Origin: Chloroflexota bacterium | GTDB taxonomy: Bacteria > Chloroflexota > Anaerolineae > CG2-30-64-16 | NCBI GenBank assembly: GCA_026389845.1 | Contig: JAPLHB010000170.1 | Coordinates: 41,368-105,367 of the forward strand | DNA length: 64,000 nucleotides | Direction: 5' to 3' | In this document: piece by piece, positions 23,522 through 64,000 of the stretch | How the letters are laid out: every line of letters begins with the position of its first letter | Position numbering within the stretch: the first letter of the stretch is position 1 | Program-made: the position numbers and the translations under genes | The notes under the pieces: model-generated | What the model was told of the DNA's origin: nothing | Database searches by the model: none | The model's input: the letters and a program-made list of their open reading frames with translations, nothing else

Positions 23522-25068
23522 ATAGCCATAATTTGAGCAAGCCCTCGACTACGATGGTTCTTGCAGCAGTCATAGCCTTTGTGACAGTCGCTGTGCGACT
23601 GGGCTATGGCCCACGCACCGTGGACGATGCATTCATTACCTTCCGTTATGCCCGCAACATCGCTGAGGGCGTCGGTTTTGTATTCAATCCTGGTGAAAGG
23701 ATACTGGGCACCACAACTCCGCTGTTTGCTTTGCTGCTGGCAGCTTTCTACCGGATCGGGTCCCAACTGCCCTGGAGTGCTCTGTTGATCGCCAGTCTGG
23801 CTGATGCCGGCACCGCTGTGCTCATCTTTCTGGTGATCAGCAGGGTAAGCCGTAGCACGCTCGCGGCACTGGTTGCCGCTCTATTGTTCTCCGTGTCAGC
23901 AGGCAGCATCCGTTTCACAGGTGGTGGCATGGAGACGGGTTTGTTTGTGTTCTTGGTGATGTTGGCAACATGGCTTTTCATTGACGAACGCTATTCACTA
24001 GCTGCAGTCAGCGCAGCACTTGCCACATTGACGCGGCCCGAAGGCATCATTGTTCTCTGCGTGTTGGGCAGCCTTTTTCTTGTTCGATTCCGCAAGCTGC
24101 CTTGGTTCATAATAGGCATCAGCCTGGCCATCGGACTGCCATGGGTTGTCTTTGCCTTTGCCTATTTTGGTTCTCCGCTGCCCTACTCGATGGTGGCCAA
24201 AGGAAGCACCTACGCATTTCCACCATTGACGGCTCTAAAGAGTTTGCTGGGGTATCTGGTCGCATATACGTTGCCCACCGATGATCTTGAGTTGGGACGC
24301 CTGTTCAAATATGGCTTTGCGATTCTAGTACTATTCCTCGGTGCACTAACTGCCATTGTGTACGGTAAACGGCGGGGGGAGGATTATTCCGTTCTGTGGG
24401 CATTTCCTGCGGTTTATCTAGGCGTCTATACGATCGCCAATCCCCCCGTTTGGGAGTGGTATGCTCTGCCGCTGGTGCCATTCACGGTTTGCCTCTTAGT
24501 ATCTGGTGGTGTAGAAGTCTGGCGAACAGCCGTTACACGGATGAGGATAGGGAACTTGCATGCACTGGGATTTCTCAAGTTTCTGGTGTTGCCAGCGATA
24601 TGCCTCTTGGGACTCGTTCAAATCCAACAGATTCTACGCATCGACGTAAGGGTTGGCCGAGAGTTGACCTACGCCGATATCGCACATAAGCTTCAGCCCT
24701 TACTGCAGCACGAAGATAACCTGGCTGCGCCGGAGATCGGCGCCCTGGGCTATCTTTTGCCGAGCGCCTATATGCTGGATACGCAAGGGCTTGTTTCGCC
24801 AGCTGCCGTGCCCTATCGCCAGGATGTATTGCGCACACTTTCGCTCGATGTGGATTTCCAAGCATTGTGGTTTGCGAGTGGCGCGATACCACCGAGCCTC
24901 ATTGCTGAGCAGAAACCTCAGTATGTTGTCTCACCTGAGAAGCTGGCTGCCCTCCTGGTCCGAGATGAGGTGTTCTCTGAAGCCTACCGTCTGATTCTCA
25001 CCGAGCCTAGTGACTTTATGGGTGGTTCAGGCATCCTGGTTTGGCAAAGGGTCGATGGTGGAAATTGA
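23518..25068 (+). CDS. Polytopic membrane protein, GT-C-like putative glycosyltransferase
   Basis: The ATG at 23518 overlaps the upstream stop as ATGA. The first-loop motif is DDAFITFRYARN. It has many transmembrane helices and visibly lower G+C than the flanks. Confidence 0.55.
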   Translation: MNSHNLSKPSTTMVLAAVIAFVTVAVRLGYGPRTVDDAFITFRYARNIAEGVGFVFNPGERILGTTTPLFALLLAAFYRIGSQLPWSALLIASLADAGTAVLIFLVISRVSRSTLAALVAALLFSVSAGSIRFTGGGMETGLFVFLVMLATWLFIDERYSLAAVSAALATLTRPEGIIVLCVLGSLFLVRFRKLPWFIIGISLAIGLPWVVFAFAYFGSPLPYSMVAKGSTYAFPPLTALKSLLGYLVAYTLPTDDLELGRLFKYGFAILVLFLGALTAIVYGKRRGEDYSVLWAFPAVYLGVYTIANPPVWEWYALPLVPFTVCLLVSGGVEVWRTAVTRMRIGNLHALGFLKFLVLPAICLLGLVQIQQILRIDVRVGRELTYADIAHKLQPLLQHEDNLAAPEIGALGYLLPSAYMLDTQGLVSPAAVPYRQDVLRTLSLDVDFQALWFASGAIPPSLIAEQKPQYVVSPEKLAALLVRDEVFSEAYRLILTEPSDFMGGSGILVWQRVDGGN

Positions 25069-40558: not shown

Positions 40559-41767
40559 ATGAGATTATTGGTTGTCTCGGAAATGTTCCCCTATCCGCCC
40601 ATCAGCGGTGCGAAGATTCGGGCCTACAACCTGATCCGCCAACTGGCCCAACTGGCCGAGATTGACTTGATCGCTCAAGTGCGCACCCTGACCCCAGCCC
40701 AGCTAGCAGCCGGCACAGAACATCTGAGACAGTATTGCCGTTCGGTAACGAGCGTGCCGGGGATACCCTATCGGTACAGCATCGGCAAGGCACTACGAAC
40801 GCTGGTCGACCCGGTCCCGCCGGTAGTGCGCTACTCGAGAAACGTGTCTCTGGAACAGTTGGTGGCCCAAGCCTGGGATGGCCGTTACAATGCAGCCATA
40901 GCCACGATATCGGGTTCCCCAAATGCGGCACTCCGAAGTCTGGTAACCCTAGGTGTGCGGCCTTTGGTCGCAGACTCACTCGAGCTGGGGGTCTTCCGGC
41001 CCCGGGGCGCATGGGTTTCGTTGCGTCGCCTGCGCAACACAGTGACATGGTGGCGCATGAGGCGTTTCGCGCGCCAGCTCCTGGCGCACGTCGATGCGAT
41101 AACCGTCACCTCTGAGACTGAGAAAACGCTGTTCGCGGATCTTGTGTCGCGTCCCGACCAGTGCACCGTAGTACCGAATGGCATCGATGTGCGGGACTAC
41201 GACGGTCAGTACGGGCCTCGCGATTACAGCGCGTTGTTTTATGCCGGATCGTTTTCGTACATGGCTAACTACGAAGCCATGCTGTGGTTCACGCAGAGCG
41301 TCTTTCAACATATCCCCGAACGAGAAACGCTGCACGTATGCGTCACGGGCAATACGGCGGGCCGCGACCTGGCGCCGTTGCGGCAGGCCTGCCCCCAGAT
41401 CGAGTTCCCGGGCTTTGTGGATGACGTGCGGCCCTACTTCGCAGGCAGCAGCATCTGCATCGTCCCGATCAAATCAGGCGGATCAACACGGCTCAAGATC
41501 GTGGAATCAATGGCGCTGTTTACGCCGGTAGTCAGCACGAGTGTCGGAGCGGAGGGATTGGACGTCACACACGAAGAGAACATCCTCATTGCAGACTCTC
41601 CGGAAGCCTTCGCCACGCAAATCGCTCGGCTGAGGAACGACCGAAGCCTGTGGAAGCGGCTGTCCGCTGGAGGTCGCCGACTGGTCGAAGACCACTACTC
41701 GGCCGACCGTATGCGTCAGCAATTCATCCAAATCCTGGGTCGTCTTGAGATGGGAGGGAAACCTTGA
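40559..41767 (+). CDS. GT4 glycosyltransferase
   Basis: MRLLVVSEMFPYPPISGAKIRAYNL...PIKSGGSTRLKIVESMALFTPVVST. Confidence 0.8.
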   Translation: MRLLVVSEMFPYPPISGAKIRAYNLIRQLAQLAEIDLIAQVRTLTPAQLAAGTEHLRQYCRSVTSVPGIPYRYSIGKALRTLVDPVPPVVRYSRNVSLEQLVAQAWDGRYNAAIATISGSPNAALRSLVTLGVRPLVADSLELGVFRPRGAWVSLRRLRNTVTWWRMRRFARQLLAHVDAITVTSETEKTLFADLVSRPDQCTVVPNGIDVRDYDGQYGPRDYSALFYAGSFSYMANYEAMLWFTQSVFQHIPERETLHVCVTGNTAGRDLAPLRQACPQIEFPGFVDDVRPYFAGSSICIVPIKSGGSTRLKIVESMALFTPVVSTSVGAEGLDVTHEENILIADSPEAFATQIARLRNDRSLWKRLSAGGRRLVEDHYSADRMRQQFIQILGRLEMGGKP

Positions 41768-42774: not shown

Positions 42775-44201
42775 GCGATGGTTTGCTCGCTTTGCGTCGG
42801 TTCTCCGTACGAAGGTCTTGGCTGGCCCTTGCCACGATCGCGGCTGTGCTGGCGCTATCCGCCCTGTTGGGCATGCGCGCCTCGGTCATGTGGCTGGGCC
42901 TGCTGGTCGCGGGCCTGTCTGGCCTAATCCTGCTGCAGAGGCCGGTCCTGAGCCTGCTGGCCCTGGTGGCTGCAGCCCTGGTCTTGCCCCTGAAGATCGG
43001 CACCGGCACCGAGGTCAAGATCAACCCCGCCACCCTGCTGATCCCGGCAGTCTTGGCCCTCTGGCTGCTGGGCATGATCTTGCGCCGCGACCTGCACCTC
43101 GCGGCCGCGCGGGTCAACCGTCCGCTGCTTCTATTCCTGCTGGCTGGCCTGCTCTCCCTGGGGGTCGGTAACGCCACTTGGGATCTGACTGTGCCCCGCG
43201 TCGGCAACTTCCTGCTGGTGCAACTGGCGCAGTGGGCCATTTTCGCCTTCTCCGCTGGCGCGCTTTGGCTAACCGGCAACCTGGTCAAGGATGAGGTCTG
43301 GCTGCGCCGCCTGACGTGGGCTTTTCTGATACTGGCCGGGGGCATGGCGCTTCCACGTCTGCTGCCCGGCGCCGGGGCGTTCGCTGACCGCTTCGCGACC
43401 ATCGCCTTCACTCGCGCGCCGCTGTGGACTTTGCTGGCTGCGCTAACGGCCGGGCAATTGCTCTTCAACGCCGGCCTGCGCCCGCTCGCCCGCATCTTCC
43501 TGGCGTCTGTCCTGGTGGCCTGCGTGGCCTACGCCTTTTTCGAGCAGCGCGAGGCCGCGTCCGCCTGGGTGGGGATCGGCACGGCACTGGGGGTGCTGGC
43601 GTGGCTGCGCTTTCCACGGCTGCGTTGGCTGCTCATCGCCTTGGTCGTCGCCCTCGTGTTGATCGGCATCCTTTTCCCGGCAATCTACAACTTCGCGGGC
43701 GGGGACCAGGAATGGGCCACCAGCGGTGGCTCGCGACTGGTGCTCGCTCAGCGCGTGATCGAGGTGACGCTGCGCAATCCCATCACCGGCCTGGGCCCCG
43801 CCGCCTATCGGCCCTACGCCAACATGAAGCCATTGCCCTACCAGGGCGCGTACTGGATCGCGCCGCAGATCAACTCGCACAACAACTACGTGGACCTCTT
43901 TGCCCACGTGGGACTGCTCGGCCTGGGCCTCTTCCTCTGGTTTGCCGTCGAGTTGGGTCTCCTGGGCTGGCGCCTAAGCCAACGCTACCGGACGGGTTTC
44001 CTGGCCGGCTACGCCAATGGCATCTTGGCCGCCTGGGTTGGCAGCCTGGTCATTATGGCGCTAGCCGACTGGATGCTGCCTTTCGTTTATAACATTGGCT
44101 TTGAAGGTTTTCAGGCCAGTGTCCTGGTCTGGCTGTTCCTGGGCGGGCTGGTGTCGTTGGAGCAGATCGCGGGCCATCAAAACGGAGACCACCAACCTTG
44201 A
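42771..44201 (+). CDS. O-antigen polymerase/ligase-like membrane protein (Wzy_C)
   Basis: It has about 12 transmembrane helices and the motif GLGPAAY...INSHNNYVDLFAHVGLLGLGLFLWF. Confidence 0.75.
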   Translation: MSDGLLALRRFSVRRSWLALATIAAVLALSALLGMRASVMWLGLLVAGLSGLILLQRPVLSLLALVAAALVLPLKIGTGTEVKINPATLLIPAVLALWLLGMILRRDLHLAAARVNRPLLLFLLAGLLSLGVGNATWDLTVPRVGNFLLVQLAQWAIFAFSAGALWLTGNLVKDEVWLRRLTWAFLILAGGMALPRLLPGAGAFADRFATIAFTRAPLWTLLAALTAGQLLFNAGLRPLARIFLASVLVACVAYAFFEQREAASAWVGIGTALGVLAWLRFPRLRWLLIALVVALVLIGILFPAIYNFAGGDQEWATSGGSRLVLAQRVIEVTLRNPITGLGPAAYRPYANMKPLPYQGAYWIAPQINSHNNYVDLFAHVGLLGLGLFLWFAVELGLLGWRLSQRYRTGFLAGYANGILAAWVGSLVIMALADWMLPFVYNIGFEGFQASVLVWLFLGGLVSLEQIAGHQNGDHQP

Positions 44202-55169: not shown

Positions 55170-55214
55170 CCGGGTCAATGGTCAGCAGCAAACTCAACCT
55201 TGACCTCAACCATC

Positions 55215-57515
55215 ATGACTCACCCAACACCCAACACCTGCCCCCACCTGGGCCTGGCTGCCGACCGCACGTTGGCCCGCACGCAGCCCGATACCGCTCA
55301 CCGCTGCTCCGCGCAGACGCCGCCGGGCACGCCCGACGCGGCACACCAGGCCGCGTACTGTCTGGCTGTGGCACACACCGCCTGCCCGTTCTATGTTGAG
55401 GTCGAGGATAAGGCTGAGGTTGAGGCTGAGAGCCAGGCCCGACGGGCGCGGACGTCTACCCGCCGGCGCATGCTGGCCTATCTGCCGTGGATCGCGCTGG
55501 CGCTCCTGCTGATCGTCGTGGCCGTCGTCTATGGCCGCGACCTGCTGCGGCCGCCTGCGGCCCTGCCCCCCGGCTCCAGCACCCTGACGCCCGATCCCAG
55601 CACCTTGACCCCTGTTTCCAGCCTCCTGACCCCTGATCCCGGACTCCTGACCCCTGCCACCCGACTCCCGACCCCTACCTCCCATCCGGCCACCGCGACG
55701 CCGGAGCCGGGCGGTCAAGTGCTCGTGCTCGCGCCCAAGGCGGGCGAGGCTGGCTGGTGGACGAGCGGCGAGGCGCGCGGCAACCACCTGGGGGATTCAT
55801 ACCTCTACGCCGGCTACTTCAGCGGCCAGGCGTTCGTGGCCGCGGCCCGATTCGAATTGGCGCGCGTCCCGCGCGGCGCAGCCATCCGCGAGGCCACGCT
55901 CCGGCTCACCGGCCTGCGGGATGATCGCTTCCGGCCCGAGGCCGGCGGCACGTGGCAGGTGCAATTGCTGGCTGCGGACGCGGTGAAGGAGTTCGCGCGG
56001 ACCGACTTCCAGACGCTCTTCAACGCACCCGCAGCCGTGACCCTCTTTCCGGCCTTCTACCCGGTTGACCTGGATGTCAACCGGATGCAGGAGTTGCGGC
56101 TGGACGCCAGCGGCCGCGCCTGGCTGGCCGAGCAGATCGCGGCAGGCGCGGCAACCGTGATCGTGCGGATCACCGGCCCGGCCGGCGGCGACACCCTCTT
56201 TGCCTGGGACAGCGGCGCCGGTCCGGCTAGTGGCGGCAACGGCCCGCAGATCGCCCTGGTATTGGCGCCGGCCCCGGCCACTCCGCCGCCGCTCCCCACC
56301 GAGCGGGTACTCGTCGCCACCCTCACGCCGACCCCGGCCAACGTGCTGACGGCCGCGGCACGGGTGGTCCCGGCCACCACCGGCACGCCGGTGGGCTACC
56401 GTATCGTGACGCCGACGCCGCCCCCGGCCAACCTGGCGACAGCCCAGGCGCAGGCCGTGGCGCGCGGGCTACCCCCCGTCGTGCCCAGTACGGCCACGCC
56501 CGCCAACGAAGCCACCGCGACCGCGAATGCTGCGTATGCCACCGCGGTCGCCGTCACCACAGGCACCTTTACGCCCGTGCCCACGAACGCGATCACGCCG
56601 GTGATGATCCCCGCCACGCCGGTACCGGAAAACATCGCCACCGCGGCTGCCCAGGCGTTGGCGGCCACGGCCCGCGCCCCCTTGGGCACGCCCACGCCCT
56701 TGCCCTACAACGCGCTGATCGTCACCCTGACCCCGCGGCCGTTCGAGGTGACCGCGACGCCGACCGCGGCGAACGCCGCCACCGCGATCGCCCGCTCCGA
56801 ATATGCTACGGCCGTCGCTGTGGTGGTCGGCACCTTCACGCCCCTGCCGCCGCAAGCGATCGTCGTCCGCGCCACGCCCGTGCCGTTGCTGATCTACCTG
56901 GATGAGTTGTCCCCGACTCCCGCGCCCCCGCCGACGCCGGCTATTCCCGCAACCGTCCCGCGCGAGCTGGTCGGCAAGATCCTCTTCAGCAGCGATCGCC
57001 TTGGCGATCCTCGGCTCTTTGCGTTCGACCCGGCGACGGACCGGCTGGCCCGGGTGACCCAGGGCTGGCCCTTTACCCTCGCCGCGGACGCCGAAGGCCG
57101 CTCGCCGGATGGGATCCAACGGCTGGTGGTGCAAGAGGACGCTCGGCGCACCCCGCAGGTCTACGTCCAGGATGCCCGCTACAGCGGGCTGCGCCAGTTG
57201 ACCACCACCACCGGCTGGTGTTATGATCCGACGTGGTCGCCGCGCGGCGACCGGATCGCCTTCGTCTCGCAGGAACCGGGCAACGACGAGATCTACTTGA
57301 TCAACCCCGATGGCAGCGGGATGCAGCGCCTCACTGTCAATACCTGGGAATGGGACAAACACCCTTCCTGGTCGCCCGACGGCGCACAGATCGTCTTCTG
57401 GTCGAACCGCGAGACCGGCCGCCGCCAGCTCTGGGTGATGAACGCCGACGGCAGCGGTCAACGCCGGCTGCTGGACTCGCCCTACAACGACTGGGATCCC
57501 GTGTGGGTGAAGTAG
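55215..57515 (+). CDS. Membrane-anchored protein: Cys-rich N-terminal motif, transmembrane helix, Pro/Thr/Ala-rich repeats, C-terminal TolB-like PD40 beta-propeller
   Basis: CPHLGL...HRC...CLAVAHTACPFY comes first, then the transmembrane helix LPWIALALLLIVVAVV. The C-terminus has DPTWSPRGDRIAFVS...EIYLINPDGSG...HPSWSPDGAQIVFWS...LWVMNADGSG. Confidence 0.75.
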   Translation: MTHPTPNTCPHLGLAADRTLARTQPDTAHRCSAQTPPGTPDAAHQAAYCLAVAHTACPFYVEVEDKAEVEAESQARRARTSTRRRMLAYLPWIALALLLIVVAVVYGRDLLRPPAALPPGSSTLTPDPSTLTPVSSLLTPDPGLLTPATRLPTPTSHPATATPEPGGQVLVLAPKAGEAGWWTSGEARGNHLGDSYLYAGYFSGQAFVAAARFELARVPRGAAIREATLRLTGLRDDRFRPEAGGTWQVQLLAADAVKEFARTDFQTLFNAPAAVTLFPAFYPVDLDVNRMQELRLDASGRAWLAEQIAAGAATVIVRITGPAGGDTLFAWDSGAGPASGGNGPQIALVLAPAPATPPPLPTERVLVATLTPTPANVLTAAARVVPATTGTPVGYRIVTPTPPPANLATAQAQAVARGLPPVVPSTATPANEATATANAAYATAVAVTTGTFTPVPTNAITPVMIPATPVPENIATAAAQALAATARAPLGTPTPLPYNALIVTLTPRPFEVTATPTAANAATAIARSEYATAVAVVVGTFTPLPPQAIVVRATPVPLLIYLDELSPTPAPPPTPAIPATVPRELVGKILFSSDRLGDPRLFAFDPATDRLARVTQGWPFTLAADAEGRSPDGIQRLVVQEDARRTPQVYVQDARYSGLRQLTTTTGWCYDPTWSPRGDRIAFVSQEPGNDEIYLINPDGSGMQRLTVNTWEWDKHPSWSPDGAQIVFWSNRETGRRQLWVMNADGSGQRRLLDSPYNDWDPVWVK
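55574..55680 (+). repeat. C-rich heptamer-type repeat (CCTGACCCCTG family, complement of the GTCAGGG family), in-frame
   Basis: ccagcaccctgacgcccgatcccagcaccttgacccctgtttccagcctcctgacccctgatcccggactcctgacccctgcc. It encodes SSTLTPDPSTLTPVSSLLTPDPGLLTPA. Confidence 0.85.
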
Positions 57516-57516
57516 A

Positions 57517-57595
57517 CAGGAGAGAGGGGGAGAAAGGGAGAGAGGGAGAAAGGGAGACACCCCCTCACCCCCGCACCCCTGCACCCCCGCCCCCT
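57517..57595 (+). repeat. Intergenic purine-rich arm followed by a C-rich arm
   Basis: caggagagagggggagaaagggagagagggagaaagggagacaccccctcacccccgcacccctgcacccccgccccc. Confidence 0.85.
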
Positions 57596-57610
57596 AAAAC
57601 GGAGCCAATT

Positions 57611-59242
57611 GTGGAACTCAAAGATTACATCGCCCCGTTGCGCAAATGGTGGTGGCTGATCGTCGCCTCCGTCCTCGTCGCAACCGTATCCAGCACCCTG
57701 GCCACGCGCCAGCAGTCGCCGATCTATCAAGCGCGCGCTACGATCATGGTGGGCCGCGCCATCGAAAATCCCAACCCGACGGGCAACGATTTTTATCTGA
57801 CTCAGCAATTGGCCGGTACCTACGCCGACATCGCCAAGCGCGCGCCGGTGCGCGAGGCCACCATGGCCGCATTGGGGCTGACGTGGCTGCCCGAATACAC
57901 TGTGCGCGTCGTCCCCAACACGCAGTTGGTGGAGATCACGGTGGTGGACACGTCACCCCAGCGGGTGCAGGCGGTGGCGGCCGAGTTGGCCAACCAATTG
58001 ATCCGCCAGACCCCGGCCAGTTCCGCGGGCGAGACCCAGCAGCGCCAGGCGTTTGTCAAGAGCCAGCTCGATGATCTGGAGGTCAAGATCAAGGAGACGC
58101 AGGCCGAGATCACCAAGAAGCAGGACGAATTGGGCAACATGTTCAGCGCCCGGCAGATCGCGGATGCGCAGACGCAGGTCGCGGGCCTGCAGACCAAGCT
58201 GACCACCTTACAGGCGAACTATGCGGCGCTGCTCAGCAACACACAGCAAGGCTCGATCAACACCCTCAGCATCATCGAGCCGCCCGCGCTGCCGACGAAG
58301 CCGATCGGCCCCAACAAGCTGGCGACGATCTTGCTGGCCGCGGCCATCGGCCTGGTGTTGGCAGGAGGCGCGGCCTACCTGTTGGAGTACCTGGACGACA
58401 CCCTGAAGAATCCCGACGACGTGCAGAAGGAACTGGGGCTGACCACCCTGGGCGCGGTGCCGCTGATCGAGAACCGCGACGGCGAGCTGGCCGCGCTATC
58501 CGGCGGCCAGTCGGCCGCGGCCGAGTCTTACCGGGTGTTGCGCACCAACCTGCAGTTCGCCTCGGTGGATCGGCCCCTGCGCACCCTGCTCATCACCAGC
58601 CCGGCGCCCACCGAAGGTAAATCCATGACCGCAGCCAACCTGGCCGCCGCGCTGGCGCAGGCCGGCCGCCGCGTCGTCCTGGTGGACACCGATCTGCACC
58701 GCCCCCGGCTGCACCGCATCTTCAAGCTGCGCAACAACGCCGGCATCACGAGCGCCCTGTTAGAAGAACATCCCGCGTTGGATGCGCTCCTCCAGGAAAC
58801 GCAGGTGCCGAATTTGCGTGTCCTCACGTCCGGCCCGCTTCCGCCCAATCCGGCCGAACTGCTCGGCTCGACGCGCATGAAGGAGTTGCTGGCCGAGCTG
58901 ACGGCCCTGGCCGACATCGTCGTGCTCGACAGCCCCCCTACCACCGCCCTCTCCGACGCGGCCATCCTTTCGATCCACTGCGACGGCGTGTTGTTGGTGC
59001 TGGACTCGGGTAAAACGCGGCGCGAGGTAGCCAAGCGGGCGTTGGAGGCGCTCAAGCGCGTCAACGCCCGGGTGGTGGGCGCGCTGCTCAACCGCATGCC
59101 CACGCGCGGGGCCGGCTACTACTATTACTACTATTACACCCACTACTACACGTCGGGCGATGGCCGGGACGGCGATTCGACCGAAGCCCTCGATCACCGG
59201 CGCCGGAGCAAACGCAAGGCAGGTGAGCAGCCGGCGGCATAG
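57611..59242 (+). CDS. Wzz-domain / BY-kinase fusion (Wzc/CpsCD-like polysaccharide co-polymerase tyrosine kinase)
   Basis: The GTG at 57611 lies 6 nt after GGAG. The Wzz-like N-terminus has two transmembrane helices and a coiled coil. It has Walker A SPAPTEGKS, VLVDTDLHRP and a C-terminal tyrosine cluster GAGYYYYYYYTHYYTSG. Confidence 0.85.
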   Translation: MELKDYIAPLRKWWWLIVASVLVATVSSTLATRQQSPIYQARATIMVGRAIENPNPTGNDFYLTQQLAGTYADIAKRAPVREATMAALGLTWLPEYTVRVVPNTQLVEITVVDTSPQRVQAVAAELANQLIRQTPASSAGETQQRQAFVKSQLDDLEVKIKETQAEITKKQDELGNMFSARQIADAQTQVAGLQTKLTTLQANYAALLSNTQQGSINTLSIIEPPALPTKPIGPNKLATILLAAAIGLVLAGGAAYLLEYLDDTLKNPDDVQKELGLTTLGAVPLIENRDGELAALSGGQSAAAESYRVLRTNLQFASVDRPLRTLLITSPAPTEGKSMTAANLAAALAQAGRRVVLVDTDLHRPRLHRIFKLRNNAGITSALLEEHPALDALLQETQVPNLRVLTSGPLPPNPAELLGSTRMKELLAELTALADIVVLDSPPTTALSDAAILSIHCDGVLLVLDSGKTRREVAKRALEALKRVNARVVGALLNRMPTRGAGYYYYYYYTHYYTSGDGRDGDSTEALDHRRRSKRKAGEQPAA

Positions 59243-59251
59243 GGGGACGCG

Positions 59252-60415
59252 TTGCTGCGAGGATTGTCCATCACCGATCCGACCATCCGTTTTCTGCTCC
59301 TCCTGCTGCGCGGCCGGCATGACCCGGCCGCGTTCGCCCTGGCGCGCGCGGCGGCCCCAAGCGACGCCGGAGGATGGGAGGCCGTGCGCCGGGCCATCTA
59401 CGACGAGGGGGTGGCGCCGCTGCTGTATGCGACGGTCGCGGGTCGCAAGCTGCTGCCGCCGGCGCTCGAGGCGGAGCTGGGCGAAGCGTACGAGCTGAAC
59501 ACGGTGCGGAACGTGGGCATCCTGCACGAATTGGATGCCGCGCTCCGCGGCCTGGCCGAGGCCGGCCTGCCGGTCATCCTGCTCAAGGGGGCCGCCCTGG
59601 CCGAGGCGGTCTACGGCAACCCCGCACTGCGCCCTTTGGGCGACTGCGATCTGCTCGTGCGGCCGGCCGAGGCGCCCCGTGCGCTCGCCGCGCTGGCCGG
59701 GCTGGGGTACGCGGCGACCGAGCCTGAGCCGAGGCCTGGCGATGCTCTGCGCTACGAAAGCCAGCTTTCAGTGCGGAAGCCGCCGCCGATTGCGGTGCAG
59801 ATCGAGCTTCACTGGAGTCTGTTCGATGCGCCCTATTACCAGGCCCGCCTGCCGCTGGATTGGTTTTGGGACACCGCCCTACCGCTGCCCGGGACGGCGC
59901 CCGGCAGCATGCTCGGCTGGGAGGCGCAGGCGCTCTACCTGTGCGGCCATCTGATGCTCCACCACCGCGGCCAGGGGTTGATGTGGTGGCAAGATATCGC
60001 CGAGATCTTGTGGCAGCGCGGGGCGCAGCTCGACTGGGAGCTGCTGCTGGCCCAGGGAAGGGCCTGCGACCTGGCGCTGCCGCTCCAACGGGTCTTGCCG
60101 GTCGTGGCGGCCGAGTGGGCGGCGCCGGTTCCCCCAGGCCACCTGGCGCGGCTCGCGCAGCTCCATCCCTCGCCGGCTGAGGCGCGCGTCTTCGGCGAGC
60201 TGACCGCGGCCGAACGCCCCGTGGCGCGCCGCTTTTGGGCTGACCTGGCCGCGATGTCCGGCTGGCGCCGGCGCTGGCGCTATACCTGGGACAACCTCTT
60301 TCCTTCGGCCGGCTACATGCAGCAGCGCTACGCGATTGCCCACCCGCGACTGACGTGGCTCTACTACCCGTATCGTTGGTGGCTGGGGCTGCGCAGCGCC
60401 TGGCGACGGCCATGA
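59252..60415 (+). CDS. Uncharacterised nucleotidyltransferase family protein (NTP_transf_5-like)
   Basis: ILLKGAALAEAVYGNPALRPLGDCDLLVRPAEA...IELHWSLF matches the pattern recalled for PF14907. It uses a TTG start. Confidence 0.65.
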   Translation: MLRGLSITDPTIRFLLLLLRGRHDPAAFALARAAAPSDAGGWEAVRRAIYDEGVAPLLYATVAGRKLLPPALEAELGEAYELNTVRNVGILHELDAALRGLAEAGLPVILLKGAALAEAVYGNPALRPLGDCDLLVRPAEAPRALAALAGLGYAATEPEPRPGDALRYESQLSVRKPPPIAVQIELHWSLFDAPYYQARLPLDWFWDTALPLPGTAPGSMLGWEAQALYLCGHLMLHHRGQGLMWWQDIAEILWQRGAQLDWELLLAQGRACDLALPLQRVLPVVAAEWAAPVPPGHLARLAQLHPSPAEARVFGELTAAERPVARRFWADLAAMSGWRRRWRYTWDNLFPSAGYMQQRYAIAHPRLTWLYYPYRWWLGLRSAWRRP

Positions 60416-60437
60416 CATCCAAAATGCCCAATCCCCT

Positions 60438-60466
60438 TTGACATGGCGACTCATCGGGAGTATACT
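60438..60466 (+). promoter_or_regulatory. Near-consensus sigma-70 promoter in front of the small peptide gene
   Basis: TTGACA (60438-60443), a 17-nt spacer, then TATACT (60461-60466). Confidence 0.65.
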
Positions 60467-60494
60467 GCGTACAGTTTCACACATCGGAGGCATC

Positions 60495-60695
60495 ATGAAT
60501 CCATCCACCCTCCCTCTCCAGGAAGAAAACGCTGTTCCGGTTCCGACCCGCAAGCCGTGGCAGGAACCGGCCATCGTATCCGAACGATCGCTCGAAGTCG
60601 CCGCGCAAGGCGGCCCCCCGCGCAGCCCCTGGGCCGCGCCATCGTACCTGGGGCCACTATCGGGGTCGGGGCAGAAGGTCGGCGGGTGTTTGTAG
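60495..60695 (+). CDS. Small (66-aa) leader-like peptide, candidate RiPP/bacteriocin-type precursor
   Basis: GGAGG lies 4 nt upstream of the ATG at 60495. The peptide is MNPSTLPLQEENAVPVPTRKPWQEPAIVSERSLEVAAQGG|PPRSPWAAPSYLGPLSGSGQKVGGCL. Confidence 0.5.
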   Translation: MNPSTLPLQEENAVPVPTRKPWQEPAIVSERSLEVAAQGGPPRSPWAAPSYLGPLSGSGQKVGGCL

Positions 60696-60824
60696 ACCGC
60701 TCCCACCGCTATCGTTGCCCCGCGCCGCGAGGATGCGCGGGCGGAGACGCTATGGATTGCCGGTCTGAACGGCTCGCGATGGGGTTATGCGCCGGCGAGC
60801 GCGCCGGTGCAGGGGGATAAGATT

Positions 60825-63185
60825 ATGAAACGGTATGTTGTGGTTTTGATCGTGGTTGGCGTGATCGTATCCCTCTTGACTGGTGGAGTCCGCGCCACGT
60901 CGAATCACGCAATCACAATCAATGGATCGAATGATGGCTGGGCTTCCGATGAGTCGTTCTCATGTGAGTCAGCCGACAATGCGTACTTTACCTGGGATGC
61001 TGATTATATCTATTTCGGCATCTCGGATGCAGACGCGGACTACGGTAAACTAGCCACATTCATCTATGTTGACACGGATCCCAAGACCAACCCGAGCGGC
61101 AGCGGCAACGGTACTACAACTGGCTATTCATGGCACGACACTATCGCATTGCCTTTCAACGCCGACTATACGATCGTGTGGAAAAACGAGTCGGGAAACG
61201 ATTACATCGAGGTACAACAATACTCGGGCGGGAGCTGGAACCTGGTGGCTTCTGCGACCTCGGCCGAACTGAATAGTGGCAGTAACTACGTCCAGTTCGC
61301 CATCGGCACCGATTACCGTGAAGTGCGAATCAAACGCTCAACCTTCGGTTCGCCGGATCACATTTACGCCGCTTCATTGACTGAACAGGAGTGGAATTCC
61401 TGGTATAAGTACTTCTTCTGGCCGAGTGATGCGGCGACCGCGGGTACTGGCAACAAGACTCTGTCTCACTATTTCGGTTTCGTTCTAGTGGACGGCATTG
61501 CGCCCAACTTCTCCGGCCACGAGGATACCTACCCCACTGGCACGAATGGCAGCAGCACAGATTTCAATAGCACCACCGCCTGGATTGGGGGTGTTGTACC
61601 ACAGAGCAATACGACCGCCTATGTTCGGAACGGGCATTCCGTAACCCTGAGTGACGATGCGACCGTGAAAAACCTGACAATTCTCTCCGGCGGCACATTC
61701 AACGGTGGAACGGGTACAAAAACCCTCACGATTGCCAGCGGCGGAACACTGCAGAACAACGGCGCCTACACCAAGGATACCGAGGCCGTCTCATTCGCCG
61801 GCGCAGGCACGATCGGCGGGACCATCGCGTTCAATAATCTCACCCTGGCCGGTACTGTCAGCCTGAGCAGCGGCGTCACGGTGAACGGGACGCTTACCAT
61901 CAACGCGAACGGTGCTGTCAGCAGCAATGCCCCCATCTACGGCTCGTCGTCAACCCTCCGCTACAACTCGGGCGGAGGGTACAACGTAGCAACCGAGTGG
62001 GGTGCCGGGACCAGCGGCGCCGGTGTGCCGCAAAATGTGCAGACATCGTCCAGCGGCACGAACGTCAGTCTGACTGGAAGCTCGGCGCGCACCGTGCTCG
62101 GTAACGTCACGATTGACGCCAGCACCACGTTGGCCTTGTCCAGCACGAGCGGCGGCGACCTCAACGTTGGCGGCAACTGGACCAACAACGGCACATTCAC
62201 GCACAACGACCGGACAGTGACGTTCAACGGCAGCGGCACGAGCACCTATGGCGGCAGCAGCACGACCACCTTCTACGACATCATCGTGAACTCCGGCGCG
62301 ACGGTGGACGTGGGCACGAACACCCTGTTCAATGCCAGCAACAGTGTGACCAATAATGGCACGCTGCAGCAAACCAAGACGGTTGGCGCCGGCGCGACGG
62401 TTGACTTCTTGAACGTGAGCACCAACAAGTACTATGGCCTCAGCATCATAGCTCCGACGTTGAGCGCCAACGTCGCCTCGGCCGCCGGTGCGGCTGCGCC
62501 CAGCGCCGGCCTCGGCGACGTCACGGTCAAGGTTCTCGGCGGCGGGGTGTGCGGCAACATGCACGCCAATAGCAAGCCGGTCAAACGCTGCTACACCATC
62601 ACCACGGCCAGCGGCGGCACCGCTACCGCCACGTTTTACTACAGATTCCTGGATCTGCAGGCGAGTCAAAACCCCGCCAATCTCAAGCTCTGGCAGTACC
62701 AGTCGGGCACGACCTGGAGCGAGCCGAGCGGGCTGACCTACGCAAACAGCACGTGTGTCTCGGGCGATAACAACTGCTACGTCCGGGTAACCAACCTGAC
62801 CCTGCCGGCCGGCGAGAGCCGCTTCGCGCTGATGGAGACCAACCCCACCGCGGCCGTGCTCTCCTCCTTCGCGGCCGCGGCCGAGCGGGGCGGGGTCACG
62901 GTGACGTGGGAGACGGCCAGCGAGCTGGGCAACCTGGGCTTCAACCTCTACCGCGCGGCCGCGGTGGACGGCCCGTGGGCCAGGGTCAACCCCGCGGTGA
63001 TCCCCGGCCGCTCCCCCGGCTCGCCGGAGGGGTTCACCTACACCTGGGCCGATCGCCCGCCGGCGCGCGGACTGTACTGGTATCGCCTGGTGGGCGTGGG
63101 CATGAATGGCGTCGAGACGGAGCTGGACACGGTCAGCGTGAGCTATCCCTATGGCTGGCTCTGGTTGCCGCTGCTGGCGCGGTGA
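60825..63185 (+). CDS. Large secreted surface protein with beta-helix-type Gly/Thr/Asn-rich repeats and a C-terminal Ig-like domain plus short hydrophobic tail
   Basis: It has a signal/anchor MKRYVVVLIVVGVIVSLL, with AGGGGGA upstream. The repeats follow the pattern G.T...G.L.N.G. The C-terminus is LSSFAAAAERGGVTVTWETASELGNLGFNLYR...YWYRL...YGWLWLPLLAR. Confidence 0.7.
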   Translation: MKRYVVVLIVVGVIVSLLTGGVRATSNHAITINGSNDGWASDESFSCESADNAYFTWDADYIYFGISDADADYGKLATFIYVDTDPKTNPSGSGNGTTTGYSWHDTIALPFNADYTIVWKNESGNDYIEVQQYSGGSWNLVASATSAELNSGSNYVQFAIGTDYREVRIKRSTFGSPDHIYAASLTEQEWNSWYKYFFWPSDAATAGTGNKTLSHYFGFVLVDGIAPNFSGHEDTYPTGTNGSSTDFNSTTAWIGGVVPQSNTTAYVRNGHSVTLSDDATVKNLTILSGGTFNGGTGTKTLTIASGGTLQNNGAYTKDTEAVSFAGAGTIGGTIAFNNLTLAGTVSLSSGVTVNGTLTINANGAVSSNAPIYGSSSTLRYNSGGGYNVATEWGAGTSGAGVPQNVQTSSSGTNVSLTGSSARTVLGNVTIDASTTLALSSTSGGDLNVGGNWTNNGTFTHNDRTVTFNGSGTSTYGGSSTTTFYDIIVNSGATVDVGTNTLFNASNSVTNNGTLQQTKTVGAGATVDFLNVSTNKYYGLSIIAPTLSANVASAAGAAAPSAGLGDVTVKVLGGGVCGNMHANSKPVKRCYTITTASGGTATATFYYRFLDLQASQNPANLKLWQYQSGTTWSEPSGLTYANSTCVSGDNNCYVRVTNLTLPAGESRFALMETNPTAAVLSSFAAAAERGGVTVTWETASELGNLGFNLYRAAAVDGPWARVNPAVIPGRSPGSPEGFTYTWADRPPARGLYWYRLVGVGMNGVETELDTVSVSYPYGWLWLPLLAR

Positions 63186-63202
63186 AGGCAGAAGGCAGAA
63201 AG

Positions 63203-64000
63203 TTGAGCGTGTCTATTCGGTCAATCCTTGAATTCGTTGTTCTATCGCTGCTGATCGTCGCGCTGGTCGTTGGCCCTGCGCCAGCGACCGCGACGGTCGA
63301 AGAGCCGGTCCTCACCTGGCGCGTGCAGACGCCGGAATACCGGCTGGACGCCGTGGGCCTGACCGTGCCGGAGGCGGGCCGCCACGACGTCCCCGGCGCG
63401 CCGCTCCTGCCGGCCTGGGGCCGCTCGGTGGCGCTGCCGGCCATGGGCGCGCCGATCATCGCCTGGCAGGCCGCAACCGTGATCACCTTGACCGTCGCGG
63501 CGCCCCTGCCTGCGGCGCCCGTGCCCGACCCGACCTGGTCAGCCCTGGGGAGCGCCATGGAGCAGCAAGATGCGCTGGTGGCCGTGCCCCTGCTTGACCG
63601 GCCCGATCCGGCCATCTACACCTCGGACGCCTTCTACCCGGCCTCGCCGGTGCAGGCCGTGGGCGAGGGGTGGCAGAGGGGCGAGCGCCGCCTGTCGCTG
63701 CGGGTCTATCCCTTCCAATACAACCCGGCCGCGGGCCTGCTGCGCTACTACCCCGACCTGACCGTGACCGTGCGCGTGCCAACGGTCGTCACCACAGCCC
63801 AACCGGACGCGGTCAGCCTGCCCGCCGCGGGCCTGCCCTACACGATCAACCCCGCGGCCCAGTTCATCCCCGGCGGCGGGAGCGTGCGCATCCGTACCGC
63901 CGCGGCCGGCCTCTACCGCCTGACCTACGCCGACCTGGTGGCGGCCGGCGTGCCGCTCGCCAAAACCCCGGCCGCCCAGCTCGCCATCTCCTACGGCGGC
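63203..64000 (+). CDS. 5' part of a peptidase-C25 (gingipain)-like protein (propeptide region); continues past the window
   Basis: The frame is open from TTG 63203 or GTG 63209 to the end of the window. It has a signal anchor ILEFVVLSLLIVALVV, then ...RLSLRVYPFQYNPAAGLLRYYPDLTVTVRV, which resembles the C25 propeptide motif. Confidence 0.55.
   Translation, partial: MSVSIRSILEFVVLSLLIVALVVGPAPATATVEEPVLTWRVQTPEYRLDAVGLTVPEAGRHDVPGAPLLPAWGRSVALPAMGAPIIAWQAATVITLTVAAPLPAAPVPDPTWSALGSAMEQQDALVAVPLLDRPDPAIYTSDAFYPASPVQAVGEGWQRGERRLSLRVYPFQYNPAAGLLRYYPDLTVTVRVPTVVTTAQPDAVSLPAAGLPYTINPAAQFIPGGGSVRIRTAAAGLYRLTYADLVAAGVPLAKTPAAQLAISYGG

Follow-up and report, generated by a model that had tools for sequence, protein, structure and literature searches.

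The window considered here is a stretch of 64,000 nucleotides (nt) from the metagenome-assembled genome (MAG) of an Anaerolineae bacterium of the phylum Chloroflexota (assembly GCA_026389845.1, here G000; contig JAPLHB010000170.1, here C19, forward-strand positions 41,368 to 105,367), and its subject is a small open reading frame (ORF) of 66 amino acids (aa) that follows a gene for an NTP_transf_5 (PF14907) protein. Upstream of this module lies an exopolysaccharide (EPS) locus with a Wzy-like polymerase, several glycosyltransferases, a methyltransferase and a Bac_transf priming transferase, and around the ORF are genes for a TolB-like protein, a Wzz-kinase fusion, the PF14907 protein, a secreted protein of 792 aa and a PorU-like C25 peptidase (Table 1). 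No HprK-like kinase, RRE (recognition element of RiPPs, peptides made by ribosomes and modified after translation), radical SAM enzyme or exporter was found in the window. We consider it likely that the 66-aa ORF is the precursor of a RiPP, that its pathway is a Chloroflexota (Anaerolineae) relative of the linear polyphosphorylated peptides (LPPs) of Bacillota, and that the window carries a satellite module of this pathway.

Table 1. Features of the window, and one related gene on contig C165 of the same genome
Feature	Coordinates	Strand	Remarks
66-aa ORF with stop codon	60495-60695	+	ATG at 60495
Predicted sigma-70-like promoter, TTGACA-17-TATACT	60438-60466	+	11/12 consensus positions; TTGACA at 60438-60443, TATACT ends at 60466
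Shine-Dalgarno GGAGG	60486-60490	+	4 nt 5' of the ATG
Leader part of the precursor, residues 1-37 (inferred boundary)	60495-60605	+	First ~18 residues variable, then R19-K-P-W22-Q-E-P25-A-I27-V-S29-E30-R31-S-L33-E-V35-A-A37
Inferred core, residues 38-66, with stop codon	60606-60695	+	Q38 GGPPRSPWAAPSY-LGPLSGSG-QKVGG-C65-L; motif G53-P54-L55-S56-x-S58; Cys65
TolB-like/PD40 beta-propeller protein with Pro/Thr-rich linker	55200-57515	+	PF07676 PD40 E 6.7e-17; TIGR02800 94.6 bits, below cut-off
Wzz chain-length determinant fused to tyrosine autokinase	57233-59242	+	TIGR01007 E 2.3e-55, 187 bits vs cut-off 108; Pfam Wzz, GNVR, ParA
NTP_transf_5 (PF14907) protein, 387 aa	59252-60415	+	PF14907 E 2.3e-47, 162 bits vs cut-off 31.2; counterpart of LppN/PsmN; GDCD at residues 129-132
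792-aa secreted protein with N-terminal hydrophobic signal-like segment	60807-63185	+	Weak Pfam G8 match only, E 0.014, below cut-off
Start of PorU-like Peptidase_C25, 1179 aa	63190-64000, past window end to C19:107809	+	Listed from 62906; homologues align from ~residue 105-135
146-aa S24/S26-fold protein	C165:109538-109975 (L016:15539-15976)	-	Between Wzz-kinase and HprK-like genes

The whole translation of the ORF is MNPSTLPLQEENAVPVPTRKPWQEPAIVSERSLEVAAQGGPPRSPWAAPSYLGPLSGSGQKVGGCL, and its ATG lies 79 nt behind the end of the NTP_transf_5 gene. The initial annotation had described this gene order together with the TTGACA-17-TATACT promoter and a GGAGG 4 nt from the ATG, and all of these were confirmed in the sequence. 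For the exact promoter string there is a single match in the whole 64 kb and none in any of 100 shuffles that preserve dinucleotides, and a general promoter scan of positions 57000-64000 gave three sites against a shuffle mean of 0.7. Just three of the 25 homologues scanned have a peptide-gene promoter agreeing at 10 or more of the 12 positions, and the predicted near-consensus promoter is a peculiarity of the window copy. A GGAGG- or AGGAG-like site 4-9 nt upstream of the ATG was seen by eye in most homologues, L027 being without a clear one. Two contigs that stem from other samples, of two studies, span the junction of the NTP_transf_5 and peptide genes without a difference (X4 record 3 for 59944-61500 and X5 record 5 for 59242-60691); since it is bridged letter for letter in other samples, it did not arise from the assembly of this bin. 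Two metatranscriptome contig sets, one of them from a DNA-bearing sample, gave no match to the stretch and are uninformative on expression.

NCBIfam and Pfam scans of the 66-aa peptide found no family at E <= 1. In 23 aligned homologues, W22, P25, I27, E30, R31, L33, Q38 and P54 are invariant, and L29, A37, G53, L55, S58, G63 and C65 are kept in at least 90%. Members of the family begin with a variable N-terminus. Next come the leader block (R/K)xWExPxIVLERxLExxAQ, a linker rich in Pro/Gly whose length differs between members, and the motif GFLGPLxTSGxxGxC, behind which 0-6 residues remain; the probable boundary between leader and core was placed after A37. An alignment profile searched against 1.84 billion proteins gave 135 cluster representatives at E <= 1e-3 (66 at <= 1e-10), which are 45-99 aa long bar a few. 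All named representatives are called "hypothetical protein", and the titles of matching records refer to Chloroflexi, Anaerolineae or Anaerolineales MAGs. In a class-wide sample of 201 genomes, a peptide match at E <= 1e-5 was obtained in 16, spanning five families. Our genome holds four intact paralogues (on C68, C78 and two on C165), and related genomes have one to four copies each. Codon differences between homologues within the leader block number 1163, 759 and 2107 at positions 1, 2 and 3, respectively, with 1485 synonymous against 1235 non-synonymous. Purifying selection is visible in these codon statistics, and the peptide gene is real and conserved.

Local reference proteins were mapped onto 42 peptide loci from 27 genomes. 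Left out of this count were L001-L015 (short versions that were refetched with longer flanks), L019 (a copy on C58 with an internal stop), L040-L043 (paralogue contexts), and L044-L047 and L049-L051, treated as repeats of loci already counted. The canonical order is TolB-like protein, Wzz-kinase, PF14907 protein, HprK-like kinase, PqqD, radical SAM/SPASM protein, peptide, C25 peptidase and proteins with a shared C-terminal domain. The C25 peptidase, PqqD, radical SAM/SPASM, HprK-like kinase, Wzz-kinase and PF14907 genes were found at 32, 28, 24, 21, 17 and 13 of the 42 loci, respectively, and all six together at nine. Because many loci are cut by contig ends, these counts are lower bounds. Pfam searches confirmed the gene assignments in the complete cassettes L055 and L058 and in L016, the paralogous cassette of our own genome. 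The RRE-type box (K/R)xP(W/Y)xxPx(I/L) that had been recognised in the small ORF of the window is borne out by the invariance of W22, P25 and I27 and by the frequency of PqqD. The association of such ORFs with NTP_transf_5 genes likewise recurs, with leader block and core motif conserved.

The genes missing from the window are found elsewhere in the genome. On contig C165 the order is Wzz-kinase, a 146-aa S24/S26-fold protein, HprK-like kinase, PqqD, radical SAM/SPASM protein and a first peptide, after which a large protein bearing the C-terminal domain, another peptide and C25 follow. No PF14907 gene or remnant was detected in the C165 cassette (best tblastn E 1.2). The cassette-type radical SAM gene occurs in G000 as a single copy, on C165 only, and HprK-PqqD pairs are on C165 and C183. 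The initial annotation had suggested looking elsewhere in the genome for PqqD/RRE, C39 peptidase or lasso B/C genes; PqqD has three genes, on C165, C183 and C203, and the C39 and lasso genes are treated below. In a tree, the PF14907 protein of the window groups with the transferases of L055 and L024, which belong to complete cassettes (99/99 support), and the window peptide has the same ending, GPLSGS...GGCL, as the L055 and L024 peptides. Because the relatives of both its transferase and its peptide sit in complete cassettes, the window module looks like a cassette that lost about 3 kb containing the kinase, PqqD and radical SAM genes and that acquired, or retained, its own promoter. By gene content, the window is best described as a reduced "satellite" copy of a regular cassette whose missing genes are present once, on C165. 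The initial view of an orphan or non-canonical pairing was correct in that no RRE, kinase, radical SAM enzyme or exporter is in the window, but it has to be replaced by that of a reduced copy.

Such an arrangement is not peculiar to this genome. The radical SAM gene is single-copy in four of five other genomes tested (none was found in G020, which is 94% complete), and genomes with one radical SAM gene hold two to four dispersed peptide loci, several of which are bare modules of Wzz-kinase, peptide and C25. The GC content is 63.1% for C19 and 63.9% for C165, and their tetranucleotide distance is 0.0057, the median for the bin being 0.0086. This likeness is weak evidence for one organism.

The identities of the partner proteins were examined with profile and structure comparisons. 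PqqD matches PF05402 at E 2.3e-14, and in the maturase the domains Radical_SAM (E 8.7e-22) and SPASM (E 6.9e-7) were recognised. Profile matches of the HprK-like kinase are weak (TIGR04352 at E 5e-7, below cut-off; ScmC; HprK_rel_B), and its predicted structure (pLDDT 87.7) has the fold of phosphoenolpyruvate carboxykinase (PEPCK) and HPr kinase, with PEPCK matches from E 4e-8 and HPrK/P 1knx at E 4.6e-5. The PEPCK fold class is shared by HPr kinases, and on this model the protein is predicted to be an HprK-like kinase. The 146-aa protein of C165 gave no Pfam match at E <= 0.001; it has the motif GTSMTPT (GxSMxPT) and an invariant His-Arg-Leu-Val-Arg-Arg stretch, and its predicted structure matches SipA 4n31 best (E 1.6e-4, TM 0.51), followed by SpsB, LexA and the human signal peptidase complex (SPC). 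It is encoded at six of the 42 loci, including C165, and missing from most cassettes; on this fold it is a candidate counterpart of the LPP leader peptidase LppS. Sequence searches of the PDB gave nothing meaningful for the transferase or the S26-like protein.

A complex of PqqD and the peptide predicted with alignments scored 0.48 against 0.00 for the best control (partner pLDDT at least 51; at least 93% of contacts shared between runs). Of 157 solved complexes, 116 reach the mark applied, as do 2 of 215 mismatched pairs, and only 18 of the 157 gave scores of 0.60 or lower. Because solved RRE-leader complexes exist, the pass may reflect likeness to them, and the prediction lends weak support to PqqD-leader binding.

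A further tie between precursor and maturase is given by the cysteine near the C-terminus, which the initial annotation had pointed out as a single penultimate Cys and which proved to track the radical SAM gene. At the 24 loci with a radical SAM gene, 25 of 26 peptides carry Cys. At five HprK-PqqD-peptide loci without a radical SAM gene even at E <= 1 (L062, L065, L066, L067 and L069), none of the five peptides has Cys, and all end shortly after GP(L/F)S-x-(T/S). Since Cys-bearing and Cys-less kinds are found side by side in four genomes (G064, G207, G179 and G119), the contrast is not one of lineage alone, although these genomes are related and the counts are raw. This covariation supports an enzyme-residue pairing of radical SAM protein and Cys. 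Because GPLx(T/S)(S/T) is common to both kinds, it is the natural candidate site of the kinase, and the Cys is that of the radical SAM enzyme.

LPPs were described from Bacillota in 2026, with an LppA precursor, LppK HprK-like kinase, LppB RRE, LppS SpI (type I signal peptidase)-like leader peptidase, LppN of PF14907 and LppD exporter (PMC13381572). According to that description, LPP clusters are embedded in capsular polysaccharide loci and restricted to Bacillota, their role being given as unknown; the precursor leader is YxxPxVLxHQxIxFETxxS, and discrete RREs read a [Y/W]xxPx[L/V/I/A/F/Y] motif. In its supplementary table, the transferase of LPP clusters (LppN) and that of paeninodin-like lasso clusters (PbaN) are both PF14907, in line with the initial annotation, which had named NTP_transf_5 genes as frequent accessories in lasso-peptide and related RiPP clusters. 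The Anaerolineae system resembles LPPs in the [Y/W]xxPx[V/I/L] leader of a small precursor, in sharing a discrete PqqD-type RRE, an HprK-like kinase and a PF14907 transferase (kinase and RRE lying outside the window), in the lack of a lasso cyclase, and in the polysaccharide (capsule/EPS) setting; the S24/S26-fold protein of the six loci may be a further, SpI-like counterpart. It differs in phylum (Anaerolineae MAGs of Chloroflexota); in its leader, WExPxIVLERxLExxAQ, which is without HQxIxFET and has Trp at the position of the Tyr found decisive for LppB (PMC13381572); in its conserved core (GFLGPLxTSGxxGxC), that of LPPs being highly variable; in the additional radical SAM/SPASM protein paired with the core Cys; in the PorU-like C25 and shared-C-terminal-domain proteins as fixed neighbours; and in the lack of an MsbA-like exporter in the cassette. 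For this last point, ABC_membrane domains were absent from C19 and from the Pfam-scanned genes of L055, L057 and L058, the nearest on C165 being ~30 kb from the cassette.

Because of these differences, and because no curated NCBIfam model for an established RiPP system reaches its cut-off, we file the Anaerolineae system as LPP-like with a radical SAM enzyme, outside the described LPP family. By analogy, it would work like the LPP pathway with a radical SAM step added, the comparison being with the published descriptions of the Lpp proteins. Our literature search found no paper on the Anaerolineae cassette, and in the main text of PMC13381572 "radical SAM" and "Chloroflex" have 0 occurrences. 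Headings of its supplementary domain matrix include Peptidase_C25, Propeptide_C25, Radical_SAM, Wzz, G8, TIGR04545, TIGR03962 and TIGR04303, and a cassette of this kind may thus surround one or other of the SpI homologues covered there.

Other known systems share parts of this gene set. In pseudomycoidin biosynthesis, PsmK, a kinase of the HprK type, acts on PsmA and phosphorylates its C-terminal Ser. The phosphorylated peptide then gains +162 Da and takes up one or two hexoses, for which PsmN is needed, an "uncharacterized NTP transferase" whose D134A/D136A mutant is inactive (PMC6993621). The paeninodin and pseudomycoidin systems resemble the Anaerolineae cassettes in the Trp-type leader motif, the HprK-like kinase (acting there on a Ser near the C-terminus) and the NTP transferase, but the Anaerolineae cassettes have no macrolactam synthetase or B2 protein, and their core has no acidic ring-closing residue. 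The Anaerolineae product is presumably linear or thioether-bridged. Mycofactocin, pyrroloquinoline quinone (PQQ), sactipeptide and ranthipeptide systems are similar in the order of PqqD, radical SAM/SPASM and small peptide, and the core is conserved as in MftA and PqqA. The radical SAM protein scores 123.6, 123 and 104.5 bits with the MftC, StsB and PqqE models, far below their cut-offs of 265, 625 and 381, respectively. Sactipeptide and ranthipeptide systems likewise have a radical SAM/SPASM maturase beside a Cys-bearing precursor, as at the 24 loci here (none in the window), but the Anaerolineae core has a single Cys and not several. Kinase and PF14907 partners are not known from these four systems. 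Finally, the C25 protein resembles PorU, the C-terminal signal peptidase/sortase of the type IX secretion system (T9SS): it has the C25 domain, PorU models match at E 1e-45 to 6e-55, and its gene adjoins large secreted proteins with a shared C-terminal domain and polysaccharide genes, but its scores of 155-187 bits are below the cut-off of 420.

Put together, these comparisons suggest the following pathway. A discrete PqqD-type RRE would bind the leader block KPWQEPAIVSERSLEVAA, as its motif and synteny suggest. By analogy with PsmK and LppK, the HprK-like kinase would then phosphorylate a Ser/Thr of the GPL-S-x-S motif, and the PF14907 protein encoded upstream could decorate the phosphate, with a hexose if PsmN, the one tested case, is a guide. 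The radical SAM/SPASM enzyme, paired with the peptide by covariation, may act on Cys65, most likely by forming a thioether cross-link. Type I signal peptidases follow a -3/-1 rule. Since V35-x-A37|Q38 fits this rule, it is a candidate cleavage site at which the leader might be removed by the S24/S26-fold protein or the C25 peptidase. The C25 protein may serve as leader peptidase, as surface-protein sortase, or as both. Because the cassette with RRE, kinase, radical SAM and S26-like genes is on C165 only, and because that cassette has no PF14907 gene, we propose that the window precursor could be matured in trans by the C165 proteins, in which case each locus would supply what the other lacks. 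The cell surface is the probable place of action of the product, in concert with the polysaccharide and C25 machinery.

Several points weigh against this reading, and every modification step in it rests on analogy. LppN was inactive in the published heterologous test, as reported in PMC13381572. None of the NCBIfam system models tried (SynChlorMet, GeoRSP, HPr-rel-A, mycofactocin and lasso PqqD) reaches its curated cut-off, the scores against cut-offs being 32.7/100 for ScmD, 32.7/100 for GeoRSP PqqD, 19/35 for HPr-rel-A PqqD, 29/200 for HprK_rel_A, 22.6/125 for ScmC, 123.6/265 for MftC and 87.3/400 for GeoRSP radical SAM. The steadiest neighbour of the peptide is the C25 peptidase rather than the RRE, the S26-like gene is at six loci only, and four loci consist of just Wzz-kinase, peptide and C25 (L034, L035, L037 and L048). 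The lone Cys-less peptide at a radical SAM locus is the second C165 copy (L016), whose end, ...FLGPLKLS, immediately precedes the C25 frame. As a MAG, the genome comprises 228 contigs with 93.9% completeness and 8.1% contamination, and C19 and C165 could come from different cells. It also has six PF14907 matches, of which three besides that of the window are high-scoring (C193, C41 and C89), and the C89 copy groups with a transferase beside a cassette in G010; since such other genes exist, the window copy is not the sole candidate partner. No cassette or peptide genes were found near the C193, C41 and C89 paralogues within the stretches fetched. The window peptide itself departs from its family at conserved sites, having Ser29 where at least 90% have Leu, Tyr51 in place of a mostly found Phe, and S56-G-S58 where most homologues have x-T-S. 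These substitutions at S29, Y51 and G57 could reflect relaxed constraint, and the peptide may be a poorer substrate or one tuned to another partner.

The same substitutions (L29S, F51Y, T57G) would be expected if the window module were a decaying remnant, that is, a cassette that lost its kinase, PqqD and radical SAM genes and whose peptide gene yields no mature product. The nearest relatives of its transferase and peptide, in L024 and L055, have HprK-PqqD-radical SAM genes between the two where the window has 79 nt, and the stop-interrupted copy on C58 means that members of the family do decay in G000. Nevertheless, the ORF is intact with all eight invariant residues and Cys65 retained, no promoter match in the window is better than the one before it, its GGAGG is complete, and its sequence is identical in contigs of two other samples. 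Dispersed precursors without adjacent maturases are moreover the rule in related genomes with a single radical SAM gene, and we regard decay as unlikely.

The prominence of C25 leads to another alternative, in which the small protein is an accessory of this peptidase (a substrate, a pro-region-like inhibitor or a sorting partner) and its link with RRE, kinase and radical SAM enzyme is secondary. C25 is mostly immediately downstream of the peptide gene, in L016 its frame opens right after the stop codon of the second peptide, and the peptide-adjoining C25s form a closer group, being 42-52% identical to the window C25, while for the remaining C25 paralogues in the genome, none of which adjoins a peptide gene, identity is 26-32%. 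The four loci with only Wzz-kinase, peptide and C25 can be read in the same sense. But the [W/Y]xxPx[I/L/V] leader, PqqD at two thirds of the loci and the Cys-radical SAM covariation are hallmarks of an RRE-dependent RiPP, and the two readings are compatible, since C25 may itself be the leader peptidase. As a replacement for the RiPP reading, the accessory role appears slightly less probable than decay. An extension of the RiPP reading, speculative and of somewhat lower probability again, is that the modified peptide serves as an envelope adaptor and not as an antibiotic-like product. Once freed of its leader, the phospho-glycosylated, thioether-bridged core would be an acceptor or linker with which the PorU-like C25 transpeptidase would couple the C-terminal-domain surface proteins to the Wzz/Wzy polysaccharide.

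That the ORF encodes a double-glycine leader peptide, like those of bacteriocins or quorum signals, which a C39 peptidase-ABC transporter would cleave and export, is very improbable. The double-glycine-type end in the initial annotation came from the ...LEVAAQGG of the window copy, which does resemble such leader ends, but it is no feature of the family because only A37-Q38 is conserved there, the next two positions varying among G/D/E/Q/R/A and then G/P/S/A/V/D. There is no ABC_membrane domain on C19 or within ~30 kb of the C165 cassette, no cassette has a C39 transporter, and the one C39 match of the genome is weak (24 bits, on C210).

In lasso peptides, Asp/Glu is expected at position 7-9 of the core and Thr at position -2 of the leader. 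A phosphorylated (paeninodin-like) lasso precursor can practically be dismissed in spite of the W-type leader and of HprK-like kinase and PF14907 genes being typical of paeninodin-like clusters (PMC6993621; PMC13381572), since the window core (residues 38-66) has zero Asp and zero Glu, no Thr is at -2 of any plausible cleavage site and none is conserved before AQ, Transglut_core3 (B2, PF13471) has 0 matches in the 93.9% complete genome, Asn_synthase (PF00733) is only at C210:93431-96075 as two tandem genes far from the peptide loci, and neither cyclase nor B2 turned up in the Pfam-scanned cassettes.

With LPPs described only in 2026, the RiPP reading would add a second, distant lineage having an LPP-like set of kinase, RRE, PF14907 and putative signal-peptidase-like proteins in polysaccharide loci. 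That the polysaccharide setting returns in another phylum argues for a role of these peptides alongside capsule or EPS and against one as free antibiotics. With GPLxTS and Cys, the family provides defined substrates for probing the function of PF14907 enzymes, and a provisional name becomes available for over 100 clusters of "hypothetical" proteins of 45-99 aa. The combination of a single maturase set with several scattered precursors, each accompanied by a C25/surface-protein module, points to links between RiPP chemistry and the processing of surface proteins that can be tested. If the adaptor role were true, it would be a Chloroflexota analogue of the attachment of T9SS cargo to anionic lipopolysaccharide, and would explain why LPP-type gene sets occur in capsule/EPS loci of two distant phyla.

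Among the genes flanking the module, the TolB-like protein is the first of the canonical cassette and has a homologue in the same position in L026, L055, L057 and L058. Homologues of the Wzz-kinase align from ~residue 120 (tblastn, q119-127), and its true start is probably near 57600. As listed, the TolB-like and Wzz-kinase ORFs overlap by 283 nt, and a promoter-like TTGACC-18-TATGAT (10/12) is found within the TolB-like gene at 57198-57227. The window C25 gene in full (L020:9274-12810) matches PF01364 at E 2e-63, Propeptide_C25, and the PorU model NF033707 at E 1.4e-45, below cut-off. The 792-aa protein has a conserved C-terminal domain of ~120 aa (~62817-63182) ending in ...YPYGWLWLPLLAR. 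A domain of this kind, ~110-120 aa long (...W.T..E....GF.(L/V)YR...), is common to the 792-aa protein and the C25 peptidases, and tblastn located it as well in ORFs of at least 15 further G000 contigs; it also adjoins peptide genes at other loci including L016, and no Pfam or NCBIfam model matches it. It may be a sorting domain read by the PorU-like peptidase.

Further observations concern paralogues and related genes. The C58 copy (C58:22741-22950, minus strand, G000) has an in-frame TAG in its leader (...NRQA*DEPRIVLERLLEAKAQ...) and neighbours a gene whose protein bears the shared C-terminal domain; elsewhere in the public collection this peptide occurs in an uninterrupted form of 65 aa (P0030). 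C68 (9.9 kb) and C78 (4.4 kb) carry near-identical peptide genes (4 differences in 63 aa) behind the same upstream protein, which could be a recent duplication or a mixture of strains in the bin. The PF14907 protein of L055 (L055:5336-6886) is listed with 517 aa, ~130 more at its N-terminus than the 387-aa protein of the window; the difference may stem from the start codon chosen in ORF picking, or the extension may be genuine. On C203, a PF14907 match of 78 bits and the third PqqD gene are 18 kb apart (24248-24937 and 43412-43612). The C210 region (C210:93431-99479) has its two tandem Asn_synthase-domain genes ~3 kb upstream of the weak Peptidase_C39 match and may be another peptide- or polysaccharide-related cluster. 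A second, smaller set is present on C183 (C183:60393-61879; L040:8460-9880) and consists of an HprK-like protein, PqqD (PF05402, E 1.2e-17) and a peptide of 50 aa, whose Tyr-type leader (RKPYETPAVVFESALEVRAG...) is related but whose tail (...DLTDPAGLQKQR) is distinct, and a peptide resembling it is found ahead of two C25-like genes in L039 (G010).

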